Below are positions 1,793 through 42,204 of a stretch of DNA of 64,000 bases, piece by piece. The DNA comes from Eledone cirrhosa. Lineage: Eukaryota. The position numbers and the translations under genes are program-made. Numbering within the stretch: the first letter of the stretch is position 1; each line of letters starts with the position of its first letter. Under the pieces are notes generated by a model. The model was not told the origin of the DNA. It searched no databases and worked only from the letters and a program-made list of their open reading frames with translations. The DNA is taken from contig OZ024743.1 in NCBI GenBank assembly GCA_964016885.1, positions 58,590,001 through 58,654,000 of the forward strand, given 5' to 3'.

Positions 1793-2001
1793 ATAGGAAC
1801 CAGTAAGACCCCGACAGCTGAGCTCAAGCCGTTTCGACGGCTAATTCTGGACTGCTAATTCTAGTCCAGAATTAGCCGTCGAAACGGCTTGAGCTCAGCT
1901 GTCGGGGTCTTACTGGTTCCTATTACCCACTCTACTACCTCAAGTATTGAGTACTTTGGTGCGTTATGGTCCACCTGGTTCCTTACCACATTTCCTTCGT
2001 T
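1793..2001 (+). mobile_element. Fold-back mini-element: 61-bp perfect inverted arms plus tail, carrying the 3' half of an HHR
   Basis: Arms at 1793-1853 and 1863-1923; GAAA-cggcttgagctcagctg-TC motif; sits in (TA)n; homologous to 41762-41948. Confidence 0.75.
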
Positions 2002-2272
2002 ATATATATATATATATATATATATATATATATATATATATATATATATATATATATATTTATTTATATATATATATATTTATTTAGGTTTGTTGGTTTA
2101 CCACTGGATAGAACTGGTCATTCCTTATGGTCAACCTCGATGTAATATTATGGAGAGCACTCAACGTAATGCAACTCACCCGTCTTCGTTTGTGTACTTG
2201 GTTGTGCGAGTACGGAGTTAATTATTATAAAATAACAGGAGGCTGGACTGGTGTAATTCCTTAAGGTTTATT

Positions 2273-2330
2273 ATACTATGATCATTTCAATGACCGGGTT
2301 CAGTATGAATCCGGTGACATCATCAGGTAT
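2273..2330 (-). ncRNA. Type I hammerhead ribozyme in a Penelope-like terminal fragment (~2085-2435)
   Basis: Reverse complement: atac-CTGATGA-tgtcaccggattcatactgaacccggtcatt-GAAA-tgatca-TA-gtat, with palindromic stem III. Confidence 0.8.
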
Positions 2331-2689
2331 TCGAAATATAACAAAGGAATATAATAGACAAAATCCATGGGGCTGAAAATCAACGACATTAGGGCGACCG
2401 AACATTTAGCAGCTTCTATCCCGGTCGGCCGCCCCAAAAATTATATATATATATATATATATATATATATATATATATATATATATATATATATATATAT
2501 ATATATATATATATATATATATATATTATATGTATATTATATGTATATTATATATATATAAATTATATATATATTATATGTATATATATAGATATATATA
2601 GTGACGAAACATAAGTCAATTGCATGAACTCATAATCCTTTATTTACTGCTATATATATATATATATATATATATATATATATATATAT

Positions 2690-3154
2690 AAACGGAAAAA
2701 ATTAAACGAAATTTCATTTCCCACTCTAAGTACGGCTGTTACTTAAATATAAGTATGTACACGTACATACATATATGTATACGGACGTATATATATGTAC
2801 GTATGGATTCACCGAACATTTATTATAATGCTCGGTGTGTTTGTAAACAAACATCCCGTATTAAGCCGTAGTGACCAGCAACCATCGTTGCTCGTTTGTT
2901 CAACACTGACAAAGGAACACTGTACTAGTTACAAGGTTATTAGCTATCGTCAGCAACGTATACCTTCCTGCCAGATTGTTGAACGTATATACTTACCTTA
3001 TGCATATTAACGGCTGAGTAGCCCAATTTGCATATCGAGTGGGTTAATCGGCCGGGTGCACCGAAAACGATAAACGGAAAAAATGAAACGAAATTTCATG
3101 TCCCACTCTTAGTACGGCTGTTACTTAAATATAAGTATGTACACGTACATACAT
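2690..3154 (-). mobile_element. ~380-bp unit with ~80-bp terminal direct repeat and a degenerate HHR (2917-2959)
   Basis: 2690-2772 is repeated at 3072-3154. The body is homologous to 33365-33650, which has an intact HHR; here GAAA is mutated to GTAA. Confidence 0.7.
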
Positions 3155-3699
3155 GCATCAAAACCTATATTAAAAAATGACAAGTCTTCCGGTTCATACC
3201 TTTATACATACTCATATATTTACTTGCCTACATACATGCATACGTACTTACATACATACATACATATTTATATATACATACATACTGTACATAGAAAATA
3301 CACACGTATGTATATACAAATATCCATACATAAACACAAGTATACAGCGTCGGAAAATAATCATGATTACGTATGAATTACAGAATTATAGTAAACAGCA
3401 ACTGTATATTTTATCAGCAAACTGATCTCGATTCTAAATAAAAAACAAGAACGCAGGTGTGCCATTCAAGTAAAACTATTAAAAGATTAGAAAAAATCTC
3501 ACCCGCACTTTCTAACTCTTAACTCACGCCTATACCTTGGTATGCGATTTATCGCCACATCCTCGAAAATTTTAGAAAATGCGTTACATACATTCAATTG
3601 TCAAATGCGGATTTCGTGATATGCGAAGTGTGTCGACGAATTCCCTGAACTTAGGTGGGTTTGTATGTTTGTGTGTGTGGGATTACCACATGATCGGGT

Positions 3700-4300
3700 T
3701 CAATTGCTAATCCATTTCGAAATATACCCCTTGTGTCTCCATACACTTAGGCCACTGATCCTTCCACTTCTCAAAACACATTTAGAATGGCTCTCTGTTC
3801 CGCGGTCACAGTCCGCATGATGTCTTCTCGGCTCTTGAATTTGAGAACAAAGTAAAGTCAGAGAGAACAACATCTCCAAGTTAGGGAGCGAGGAAAATGA
3901 GTGAAATGCTTTCTTTTGTCAAACATCTTAGCTGACATGCAATGAATAACATCGAGTATTGTCATGATGCCGTTGCTAGTTTCGAGTAATCTACATTCCC
4001 AGTCCCTTGCACCGAATTACACCACGAAGACATTGGAGTATTTCCTGATAATACTCCTTCATAACTCTCTATCTATTTGGTGTGCATTCATTATCCACAA
4101 CGCCTCGTTAGTAAAAGAAAAGTCAGATTGTCCTGGATTTTGTTCCACACCTGACATTGTTTTGGGGGTATTGACAACGCTGTGTTCTTCTACTATGATG
4201 AAGCCTTGGTTTCCTGGTCGTAACAGTACACCCACGTTTCATCTCCAGTTATGACTGTATTCAGGAACTCAGAACACTTGGCAGTCTCCGGTGAACAAAG
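3700..4300 (-). pseudogene. Mariner (Tc1/mariner) transposase relic
   Basis: Minus strand encodes VITGDETWVYCYDQETK, EYYQEILQCLRGVIR...HHDNTR and FEKWKDQWPKCMETQGVYFE, interrupted by stops and frameshifts. Confidence 0.8.
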
Positions 4301-39530: not shown

Positions 39531-39577
39531 TCCTGAAGATTTCATCTGAATGAAACAGTACTAGTCCTGTAGAAGCT
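39527..39577 (+). ncRNA. Intact type I hammerhead ribozyme (right arm of palindrome)
   Basis: agcttc-CTGAAGA-t ttca tc tgaa t-GAAA-cag tactagtc ctg-TA-gaagct. Confidence 0.85.
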
Positions 39578-40669
39578 CCTTCTATAAAATAAAAAAATTT
39601 ACTCTGCCATGTATTGAGTACCTTACTTACTGTGGTTATCCCCGACTCAACCCGGGACCTACGTATATATATATATATATATATATATATATATATATAT
39701 ATACATATACATATACATATATATATATGTAGAGAGAGAGAGAAAATTGTATTCAAGGGTTGCAGATACATTTTATGTTTTTTAAGCATACAAGCAAATT
39801 TACGGTACAGATCGATAAGGAATTGTTCATTCAAAACAAATTATACTTTTTTAATGTTGTTGCAGAAAGAATCATAGTTATCACATTCACTTTTTACTAA
39901 CCGGCTTCCTCACATGTGAGCTTTTCAATGTCTAACATATATATAATATATTTATGATTTGTTAGAGTGTATAATCTTTCATACTTTTCTCTGAGATTTC
40001 ATTGAGATTCGTTCGTGCAGCGTGTAAACATCCACGTCTAGAATCTTTAAAACTTCCCAAACAATCTCTCTTTATTTGTTTACGGTGTTTCAGTTGACAG
40101 AGAGGTGGTATAATTTCAGGTGTTTGTTTTATTCTATCGTTTGACACAGCATGCATGCCTAGTCGTCTGCTAACACAAACCAGGTCTTCAGTTTACGGTA
40201 GCTTTATTTCCATTCTCCCAAAATTTGTTCGCAATTTTATCCAGGATAAATGCAATGGATAGTTAAGGATGAGGTGTCTAACATATTTGAGACATTGAAA
40301 CAATAGTTGCATGGTTCGTCTGCTATAAACTCCGAAACGAAAGGCAGGGACAAAAGATCTTAGTAATTAAAGTAGCAACAAAAGATCTTAGTAATTAAAA
40401 CGTACCGTGATTTAGATATACAAAACTGACGTCATCATGGCTGAAACGCTGTTTGTCTAGTCATGGCTAACTAAACGGGTATACACTGTCCTGAACATAG
40501 GAGCTAATATTCTAAGTATTGTATCTTTGTACAGTATGTGGAACTGTAGAATTTTAATGTTCCACTATACAGAGAGGATCTATGACAATGTATATGTTCG
40601 TGCGCGATTCTTGGATCTCCTTCAAATTCTACGATTCTTAGAAGTGCGAGCTGAATACCCTAACTCATC

Positions 40670-40950
40670 AACAATACAGGCAGCATGTACCAAAATAAAG
40701 AAGATGTATCACAATACAGAGAGAGTCGACCACAATATATCAGAATAGGCAGGATGTACCACAACGCAGACAGGATATAACACAATACAGATAGGACGTA
40801 CGATAATAAAGACAAGATGTACCGTATTATAAACGTGATGTACTATATTACAGGCACATTGTCCCACAATACACACAAGATCTCCTCCAACACACAATAC
40901 AGGGTGGACATCTCAAAGTGCAGAAAAGACATCTCACAATATAAAGAAGA
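40670..40950. repeat. Degenerate ~21-bp minisatellite
   Basis: Recurrent cacaatacag...gatgtac-like units. Confidence 0.55.
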
Positions 40951-41761
40951 TCTCTTAAGGAATGTAACCGATGTCATAACAGTAACTGATACAGAAGTCA
41001 ATTTACATTTGTTTGTTGCTAGTTATTGAAATATTGGTTACTATTTGTAGGTCTTGGATCGATTACCACCATGCTATATACGTTGCCAAACATAGCAGTC
41101 AACCATAGTTTAACACTTACAACGACAACAGCAACAAAAACAACAGCTCTCTGTCATTCGAATCTAATGGATTTGCACTCAGGTCACTTGCCCCTCTGCG
41201 GCTCTCTAACTTTGGTTATAAATCTACGACATGGCTGTTTATTGATGACATCAATGACCAATACTTTCCCAATGCAATTTTCTAATGTATCCTCAGAACA
41301 CTTCAGTAACCCCCGAAACTCTCCCGGAAAAAATCCCCTAACCTTTCCAGCTAATGTGACTCACACAGATTTGAAGATATAATAATGACAAAATTATTGT
41401 TTGTAATGTTATATTATGATTCATCTGGAGGTATTAGAAGGTCGGATAGAGAGTTTTGCGTTGTTCCATCCGACATTCTTCACTCATGACACGAAATATG
41501 TCATGATGATGCCTCCATCAGAAGTTAAAGGTAGATGCAATGATGAAACTATTGTTTGTAGTATATATAGAATGAAGTGATCATGCCCGGAGATGTTATA
41601 AAATAGTTTGTAAAATAGGGCGAAGACCTTTAAAGACGGAATAAGAAGATGACAACGGCTTTGTAAACACCATTTTTGTTGACACACACACAAACACACA
41701 GACACACACACGCGCACGCACTAACTTTCCTCAATTGAATGATATGTATATATATCTATAT

Positions 41762-41948
41762 ATAACGAAGGAGTTGTGGTAAGGAACCAGATGGACCATA
41801 ACGCACCAGAGTACTCAATACTTAGGGAGTTGGTAATAGGAAAAGGTATGACCCCGCAGGCAGAGCTCAAGCCGTTTCGACGGCTATTTCTGGACAGCTC
41901 AAGTCGAAACGAGTTGAGCTCTGCCGTCGGGGTCATACTTTTACCTAT
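41762..41948 (-). mobile_element. Fold-back mini-element of the same family as 1793-2001
   Basis: Tail 41762-41835 is the reverse complement homologue of 1925-2001; arms ~41836-41881 and 41903-41948. Confidence 0.8.
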
Positions 41949-41987
41949 ATATATATATATATATATATATATATATATATATATATA

Positions 41988-42204
41988 TAGAAGTGTTTAC
42001 ACAACAGTTAGTTCACCATACCGAGAACAATTGTTTCGCCTTAGCGGATCCTCAGCTCGTAAATATTACGAGCTCAGGATCCGCTAACGTGAAACAATTG
42101 TTCTCGGTATGGTGAATTAACTGTTGTGTAACCACCTCTACCCAACTCGTCCCATGGACTGAGTGTCTACCACTACGGATATTACCTTCTAGTGTTCTAC
42201 CACT
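41988..42204 (+). mobile_element. Fold-back mini-element; HHR core intact on the - strand at 42022-42059, mutated (CTCAGGA) on the + strand
   Basis: Arms 41988-42062 and 42067-42140. Reverse complement of the left arm: cgag-CTGAGGA-tccgctaaggc-GAAA-caattg-TT-ctcg. Confidence 0.75.

Follow-up and report, generated by a model that had tools for sequence, protein, structure and literature searches.

Short head-to-head insertions of probable Penelope-like origin in Eledone cirrhosa turn roughly 40 nt upstream of their predicted hammerhead cuts

Introduction

Penelope-like elements (PLEs) of the Hydra clade, among them Hydra-1_Obim and Penelope-13_HM, target (TA)n, carry a type I hammerhead ribozyme (HHR) near the 3' end, occur with two kinds of 3' end and can bear an inverted, 5'-truncated copy at the 5' end (PMC8557442). 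The same account states that the function of PLE hammerheads is unclear and names the origin of tandem and inverted PLE structures as an open question. Here we describe five short fold-backs that resemble these elements in a 64-kb stretch of the Eledone cirrhosa genome (contig OZ024743.1, positions 58,590,001 to 58,654,000), hereafter the window and numbered from its first base. The fold-backs are labelled E1 to E5 and begin at 1793, 16489, 39471, 41836 and 41988, respectively. They differ from the described Hydra-clade elements in being 180-220 nt long and non-coding, in having tails of 59-77 nt where 30-40 nt has been described, and in having centres at a fixed offset from the predicted HHR cut. 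The fold-back architecture has already been published for PLEs, and E1 to E5 show it in minimal form; the position of the turn relative to the cut is the part that seems new. An inversion point tied to the HHR was not found in the literature, which was searched in part.

The geometry of E1 to E5 is that of Adineta vaga Penelope insertions, which are head to head with a one-sided tail and a junction palindrome and for which self-priming was proposed (PMC3846280). Those insertions have pseudo-long terminal repeats (pLTRs) of 181-218 bp and were explained by an antisense-template model, and the text on the junction does not relate it to a ribozyme. In Schistosoma mansoni, pairs of minimal HHRs on opposite strands, about 100-700 bp apart, were read as truncated PLEs (PMC4209133). 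E3 and E5 are the shortest form of such dual hammerheads, but the motifs of E1 to E5 lie closer together and three of the five inversions cut into the motif; the part of that report on the pairs contains no breakpoint mapping.

PAc, a Poseidon element of Anolis and a member of another clade, has been characterized biochemically (PMC11167929). Its RNA is cut at +26, reverse transcriptase (RT) starts at +111 to +118, and mainly uncut RNA is used; both target strands are nicked and extended, two RT starts bound the tail, and the enzyme is predicted to be dimeric. The distance from cut to RT start is thus 85-92 nt, compared with 87-101 nt from cut to 3' end in E1 to E5. The sections on these assays report no stop at the HHR and do not address inversions. 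In R2, snap-backs place an antisense segment at the 5' junction, as in E1 to E5, especially after full-length cDNA (PMC11371274), but the HDV-like (hepatitis delta virus-like) ribozyme of R2 cleaves at the true 5' end, unlike the HHR of E1 to E5. Non-LTR (long terminal repeat) retrozymes are, like E1 to E5, small non-coding HHR repeats from PLE ends (bioRxiv 10.64898/2026.07.22.740005). They are defined as head-to-tail tandems in which every unit carries an HHR, whereas E1 to E5 are head-to-head single insertions that fall outside this definition; a tandem of a 316-bp unit in the window (45661-46380) fits it better. In twin priming of L1, the inverted part is another stretch of the RNA and not a second copy of the same stretch.

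Results

Anatomy of the five fold-backs

A sequence-only reading of the window had listed five fold-backs (1793-1923, 16489-16622, 39471-39586, 41836-41948, and 41988-42140), each with a single unpaired tail ending in (TA)n, from about four sequence families. All five were present, the tail was found in 5/5, and the number of families held. E1 (1793-2000, plus strand) consists of an inverted arm (1793-1853), a direct arm (1863-1923) and a tail (1924-2000), with a 9-nt templated insert (1854-1862) at the junction. E2 (16430-16623, minus strand) has its tail at 16430-16488, its direct arm at 16489-16555 and its inverted arm at 16557-16622. The two arms of E3 (39471-39663, plus strand) meet without a loop (39471-39528 and 39529-39586) and are followed by the tail at 39587-39663. 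E4 (41765-41948, minus strand) comprises a tail (41765-41835), a direct arm (41836-41895), a templated insert of 7-8 nt starting at 41896 and an inverted arm (41903-41948) that is 14 nt shorter than the direct one. E5 (41988-42203, plus strand) has arms at 41988-42062 and 42066-42140 and a tail at 42141-42203; a (TA)22 run (41946-41989) is common to E4 and E5.

The arms were 46-75 bp long and 75-100% identical (61/61, 50/67, 57/58, 40/46, and 69/75 in E1 to E5), and this spread of divergence points to real insertions of differing ages. The one-sided tails measured 77, 59, 77, 71, and 63 nt in the same order. The tail-less arm adjoins (TA)n as well, and both ends are (TA)n-flanked in all five. 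E1 and E4 aligned over their length (77%, E = 8e-42, BLAST) and form one family, in which the direct arms start within 1 nt of each other and the arms end at the same base. E2, E3, and E5 had no BLAST match to each other or to E1 and E4 at E<=0.05. An exact 11-nt tail motif is common to E1, E3, and E4 (0/300 shuffles for E1 and E3) and 9 nt of it are common to E1 and E2 (7/300 shuffles), while the E5 tail had nothing in common with the other tails above chance in the shuffle comparison. The arms end 15-25 nt before the tail motif and 15-38 nt past the predicted cut. No open reading frame (ORF) was found in E1 to E5, nor any BLAST match to the PLEs of the window, and the parent element was not found there.

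A-to-I editing was considered as a source of the differences between arms and rejected, as no trend was seen outside E2. The E2 arm mismatches, read on the plus strand, comprised nine G.T and two A.C (P = 0.065), which may reflect editing, strand-biased mutation or chance.

Hammerhead motifs

A strict type I HHR descriptor (CUGANGA core, stem II, GAAA, stem III, NUH triplet, stem I) gave seven matches in the window and none in any of 20 shuffles. Among the fold-backs, the descriptor was passed by both arms of E3 and by the inverted arm of E5 alone, and the HHR is complete in two of the five. E3 carries a complete type I HHR in each arm (cores at 39533 on the plus and 39524 on the minus strand) with a predicted cut after 39571, and its centre falls within the 5' strand of stem I. 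The E5 core is intact in the inverted arm (42055, minus strand) and has one change in the direct arm (42073, plus strand); the cut is predicted after 42102. The HHR of E2 is decayed, with a mutated core in both arms; stem III and the triplet were placed by resemblance to listed Hydra HHRs, which puts the predicted cut after 16517. E2 turns at core position C3. E1 and E4 retain only the 3' half: CUGANGA is missing, and GAAA (at 1881 in E1), stem III, the triplet and the 3' strand of stem I are left, with predicted cuts after 1903 and 41856, respectively. Because their core is absent, the HHR of E1 and E4 is read from this 3' half, and no uninverted copy of the HHR of this family was found in the window.

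By inspection, self-complementary words lie in stem III or its loop in E1, E3, E4, and E5, while E2 was unclear. The stem III loops of E1 and E3 (8-9 nt) are longer than in listed Hydra HHRs. Rfam gave no hammerhead over the window at E<=5; against RF00163 (threshold 34 bits), E3 had no match, E5 scored 13.6 bits and the full PLE copy of the window scored 18.4 bits. Sub-gathering Rfam matches of microRNA type to hairpins and (TA)n across the window were judged not meaningful. In a MAFFT alignment of six direct arms with their tails, E2, E3, and E5 were misaligned (53% column identity), which gave no basis for a consensus fold or covariance model. Single-strand folds of arms and tails were no better than those of shuffles (z 1.1 to -1.9).

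Position of the turn

With the start of the direct arm taken as the centre, the centre preceded the predicted cut by 41, 39, 43, 40, and 38 nt in E1 to E5, respectively (SD, standard deviation, 1.9); the value for E1 becomes 50 nt if its 9-nt insert is native. The spread was larger when the centre was referred to GAAA (SD 4.1, range 17-26 nt), the 3' end (SD 5.4, 126-139 nt), the tail motif (SD 6.5, 74-92 nt) or the arm end (SD 7.3, 58-76 nt). For a 5-nt range in four families, P was 1e-4 with a uniform null extended to 165 nt upstream; geometric nulls with means of 60 and 30 gave 4e-4 and 1.8e-3. When I1, a further HHR-bearing inversion described below, was counted as a miss, four of five within 5 nt had a P of 5.6e-4. 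These values stay below about 0.01 after allowing for six landmarks.

The sequence-only reading had placed the turn at or inside the HHR. All five centres do lie there in the sense of the offsets above, but the looser wording is weak evidence because an HHR near the 3' end builds part of the rule in: for all four families to fall within 50 nt upstream of the cut, P was 0.007 under the uniform and 0.055-0.11 under the geometric nulls. The fixed offset carries more weight. The centre also tracked the cut, since centre-to-arm-end and cut-to-arm-end distances were correlated (r 0.99, P = 0.0005; P = 0.003 with four families), as were the corresponding distances to the 3' end (r 0.94, P = 0.02; P = 0.07 with four families). 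A ruler of fixed length from the arm end would not produce the first of these correlations, and such a ruler from either RT start was disfavoured. Two scans of the window found no HHR-bearing palindrome centred anywhere downstream of -38 relative to the cut, nor any centred at -50 to about -125. Counted upstream from C3, the ends of E2, E3, and E5 fall at 0, 4, and 8 nt, at or beside the 5' strand of stem I. We regard the offset of about 40 nt as a real but small-sample signal and as a hint, short of proof, that the ribozyme probably marks the point at which copying of the RNA stops; that it would hold genome-wide as a boundary set by the HHR is possible, with the balance somewhat against it.

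Assignment to Penelope-like elements

E1 to E5 are very probably PLE insertion products. All five have the form of such products, a truncated copy adjoined head to head by an inverted copy with a tail at one end, and they agree with the Hydra clade in having (TA)n at both ends (5/5) and an HHR close to the 3' end. Judged from these sequence features, they are likely the 3' ends of Hydra-clade PLEs, truncated on the 5' side and joined to an inverted copy that lacks the tail. Hydra consensus sequences end about 29-47 or 62-152 nt past the cut, as computed from the tables of PMC8557442, and a one-letter variant of the tail motif of E1, E3, and E4 occurs at the same place in the 3' end given for Hydra-2_Amil.

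The window contains a broken Hydra-clade PLE in partial tandem (8751-16370, minus strand), with ORF pieces at 12032-14442, repeats at 8751-10873 and 14489-16248, and read-through HHRs at 9019 and 14757. Its pieces hold RWR, DKT, YRDD, CNCRRASGC, a GIY-YIG-like segment, CNLC, and CPH. The set described for the Hydra clade, which targets (TA)n and has been recorded in Octopus bimaculoides, is RWK, DKT, CxCX5C, CxxC, and CxH, with no CCHH (PMC8557442). The best homologue of the pieces was an Argonauta protein (46%). Eight proteins were scanned with Pfam, and the four PLE pieces among them had no match, so the clade was called from motifs and homologues. These motifs place the Hydra clade in this genome without establishing the element as the parent of E1 to E5. 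The element has unusually long terminal repeats of about 2.1 kb with A-rich microsatellite tracts and a 68-bp duplication, and its ORF has an Asn-rich linker. A second Hydra-like fragment (28852-29353, minus strand), with a CxCX5C linker and an endonuclease end, is truncated at (TA)n.

Other hammerhead insertions in the window

Fourteen HHR-bearing insertions were counted: the five palindromes, two short uninverted 3' halves, six read-through loci, and I1. The six uninverted read-through loci retain 103, 157, 165, 232, 248, and >1500 nt upstream of the cut. A relative of E3 (30630-30754, minus strand; 83% over 46 nt) is uninverted, retains 103 nt and was one of the read-through controls. An uninverted HHR element between (TA)n runs (2080-2441, minus strand; 165 nt upstream of the cut), a partial-tandem element with a mutated HHR (2688-3154, minus strand; core at 2953, at least 232 nt upstream) and the 2.3 tandem copies of the 316-bp unit (45661-46380, minus strand; an HHR in each unit, cores at 45852 and 46166) served as read-through controls. 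A relative of the 2688-3154 element at 33368-33649 retains 157 nt upstream. Both HHRs of the tandem are slightly mutated; it adjoins a (TA)n run of more than 200 nt and is retrozyme-like.

An uninverted relative of E1 and E4 (7872-8003, minus strand) holds the 3' half of the HHR only and extends to about 35-40 nt upstream of the predicted cut, where its boundary beside a (CA)n tract is fuzzy. A 50-nt piece between (TA)n runs (2601-2650) looks like an HHR 3' half, though weakly, with 17 nt upstream of the predicted cut and 33 nt after it, the latter close to the short 3' end in Hydra-1_Obim. A decayed HHR-like stretch near 26897, recognized by eye within an uninverted region (26836-27400, minus strand) and 63 nt from (TA)n, was left out of the fourteen.

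I1 (30964-31999, minus strand) is a truncated PLE with an endonuclease-like C-terminal frame and is the sixth HHR-bearing inversion, absent from the sequence-only reading. Its direct part starts 471 nt and its inverted arm 94 nt upstream of the decayed HHR core, with a spacer of 377 nt and no tail difference. Five of the six HHR-bearing inversions therefore turn at the HHR. A fold-back beside (TA)n and (CA)n at 7454-7593 (arms of 56 bp, 89% identical; spacer of 28 nt) was likewise not listed earlier; it has no recognizable HHR and would be a counter-example if PLE-derived.

Setting of the window

The window is rich in (TA)n and retroelement remains. Three exons at 23298-26201 (plus strand) belong to a host gene of the TPR-SET-MYND type (SMYD5-like) with 70-86% identity to an Octopus sinensis protein; the largest exon is 86% identical to this SET/MYND protein, and an Argonauta hians protein matched at 83%. 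At 21089-21216, perfect 32-bp inverted arms surround a (TA)n-like run, the reverse of the E1 to E5 layout, and the left side enters a repeat resembling a short interspersed element. Inverted-repeat elements without an HHR occur at 45086-45374, 46749-46978, and 7082-7361; the family at 45-46 kb looks tRNA-like by eye, but ARAGORN calls no tRNA. Copies of non-LTR retrotransposons with RVT_1 domains cluster at 47056-63900; they lie on both strands and in part form tandems.

Discussion

The explanation that we tentatively favour is that RT ran off uncut RNA ending at the 5' side of the ribozyme and that two cDNA ends were then fused head to head; taken over the whole chain of steps, it has rather less than an even chance of being right. 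Each of the five fold-backs reads through the cut site without a break, which shows that the template was uncut, as for PAc and as the sequence-only reading had also supposed. By analogy with PAc, the endonuclease would nick the (TA)n target on both strands, and RT would prime on each of them. One cDNA would begin 87-101 nt beyond the cut, at the tail end, and the other further in, 15-38 nt beyond the cut; these two starts would leave one arm with a tail and one without. The shared stop of the two cDNAs would be the end of the RNA itself, set for example by a protein-bound ribozyme that halts 5'-to-3' decay; this is the weakest step of the chain. What would make such an RNA end is suggested by analogy: R2 snap-backs occur especially after full-length cDNA (PMC11371274), and a 5' ribozyme fold has been proposed to block 5'-3' decay (PMC11331408). 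The barrier would need a protein because the predicted monomer folds are weak or suboptimal. The cDNA ends would finally be fused by end joining via a short self-complementary word or a templated insert. The uninverted relative of E1 and E4 at 7872-8003, which ends at a similar distance upstream of the cut, supports this account. By extension, an uncut, protein-bound HHR could set the end of the first cDNA about 40 nt upstream of the scissile bond across Hydra-type PLE families, a proposal that we consider plausible but a little more likely to fail than to hold.

As sources of the second arm, a separately primed cDNA and a snap-back of the first cDNA are nearly balanced. We slightly prefer two primed cDNAs, because the arms of E1 and E4 end at the same base before the tail motif, as expected of a second RT start, and because PAc extends both strands from two starts that bound the tail. 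Only 0-3 nt separate the arms of E2, E3, and E5, which would be hard to prime as a hairpin, and the junctions of E1 and E4 contain copies of neighbouring sequence, 9 and 8 nt long. The E3 joint weakly suggests use of a native 4-nt self-complementary word, with two bases across the centre extending stem I.

Several observations weigh against an HHR-set boundary and the run-off account built on it. Half of the HHR-bearing insertions (7/14) extend at least 103 nt upstream of the cut, including the relative of E3 at 30630-30754, which retains 103 nt. I1 turns far from the HHR, as does the 966-nt inverted copy of Penelope-13_HM (PMC8557442). In A. vaga, the junction palindromes lie at the 5' end of the 181-218-bp pLTRs (PMC3846280). 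E1 and E4 end inside the stem II region and not at the 5' edge of the ribozyme, so no single structural feature is common to all ends. Only four families are involved, and the cut was picked post hoc out of six landmarks; the E2 cut was placed on a decayed motif, and E1 can be read as 50 nt. The monomer HHR folds are weak (-6.8 for E3 and -1.1 for E5, where the minimum free energies are -9.9 and -11.9). Stray copies were also sought in GTDB, where one scan gave no matches and a second gave three bacterial matches; these lack an HHR core, share simple-repeat similarity only and were put down to chance.

The serious rival is chance combined with short cDNA length, in which the ribozyme has no role: the HHR lies just inside the 3' end of Hydra PLEs, short truncations dominate, and the spacing is small-number luck. 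With arms of roughly 10-85 nt, any small palindrome would be centred in or near the HHR, the more so as the arms end just 15-38 nt past the cut, and the geometric nulls make centres within 50 nt of the cut unremarkable. The sequence-only reading had listed short fold-backs only, and I1 and Penelope-13_HM turn far away; the post hoc choice of landmark favours chance too. The narrow range of the offsets remains improbable under every null applied, with I1 as a miss and after allowing for the landmarks; moreover, the centres follow the cut and not the element ends, and two scans found no HHR-bearing palindrome in the adjoining intervals. We therefore consider luck unlikely, although it is the alternative to be taken most seriously. 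It is less likely still that a folded, uncut HHR stalled RT and the cDNA snapped back, as the sequence-only reading had proposed, a model that works best in a dimeric double hammerhead. It accommodates the clustering of the centres and their tracking of the cut, one stop suffices and symmetric ends follow by themselves. E2, E3, and E5 end at or beside the 5' strand of stem I, the inverted arm of E4 is the shorter one, as snap-back predicts, and snap-back junctions have been seen in R2 (PMC11371274). For a monomer, however, the polarity is wrong, as RT reaches the 3' strand of stem I first and a block should leave ends near the cut. RT moves 3' to 5' along the RNA, and once it has gone 40 nt beyond the cut it has already opened stems I and III, together with stem II in part or in full. 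In a double hammerhead, the 5' strand of stem I pairs with the other unit and is the last helix that RT meets. Such dimers have been described (PMC4209133), but only a helix of 4-6 bp would be left in them. Stalling at a folded monomer finds little predicted structure where the cDNAs end, 38-43 nt beyond the cut: RNA ahead of RT at -40 folds at -3.1 to -4.9 kcal/mol in five of the six read-through copies (the tandem, at -12.3 kcal/mol, is the exception), compared with -7.5 to -11.0 kcal/mol at +8. Across the HHR, the next 5 nt have a flat pairing probability (0.38-0.40 in the six copies). The ends of E1 and E4 in stem II and the frequency of read-through (7/14) also speak against stalling, and purified RT of PAc, from another clade, copies through its HHR, with product size unchanged in HHR mutants (PMC11167929). 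Nor do the junctions speak for snap-back: three are essentially loop-free, the junction loops are unlike natural HHR loops, and snap-back alone leaves the arm end 15-25 nt before the tail motif unexplained. The propensity of cDNA to form hairpins was 2.9-3.2 bp in the HHR and 2.8-3.3 bp elsewhere, in a count whose cut position was 7 nt off for the full PLE locus. Hairpins at cDNA 3' ends were not found to be enriched, and priming by natural HHR stems in E2, E3, and E5 was rejected, as no natural loop lies at their junctions. What stands of the earlier proposal is that these are PLE-derived inversions, that the template was uncut and that the centres track the HHR better than the element ends; as a general statement that the HHR sets the inversion point, it is contradicted by I1 and Penelope-13_HM.

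Inheritance of the centre within each family, through copying of whole palindromes from palindromic sources or self-priming of antisense transcripts, appears improbable. E1 and E4 agree in arm start and arm end, family-typical palindromes at pLTR 5' ends and antisense self-priming have been published (PMC3846280), and E3 and E5 are about the smallest palindromes that retain a whole HHR. The junctions of E1 and E4 differ, though; retention of the HHR explains neither these two nor E2, as the core or stem I is gone in all three, the E3 family has an uninverted member, and descent alone does not give the same offset in four families. Origins as DNA transposons resembling miniature inverted-repeat transposable elements (MITEs) in (TA)n, or as assembly fold-back artefacts, are largely refuted and very improbable. 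They would fit the TA flanks, the inverted arms, nearly perfect in E1 and E3, and the presence of HHR-less inverted-repeat elements in the window. In a MITE, however, terminal inverted repeats would not be missing at one end, where here a tail of 59-77 nt separates the arm from the flank; HHR motifs above chance, Hydra-like spacing and the tail motif fit neither origin, and arm divergence of 8-25% in E2, E4, and E5 with arm ends consistent within a family argues against an artefact.

A fixed distance from centre to cut would join the two questions left by work on PLEs, the function of the HHR and the origin of inverted structures. If the boundary is real, the PLE hammerhead has a non-catalytic task as a boundary or ruler in integration and yields a class of (TA)n-targeted palindromes of 180-220 nt, minimal insertions that record both RT starts and the stop in one short sequence. 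Five cases occur in one 64-kb window, and the offset could help to tell twin priming from snap-back; if no peak is present genome-wide, the palindromes are ordinary, very short PLE truncations. Near-perfect hairpins of about 60 bp at this density would, if transcribed, be ready substrates for RNA editing or small-RNA pathways.

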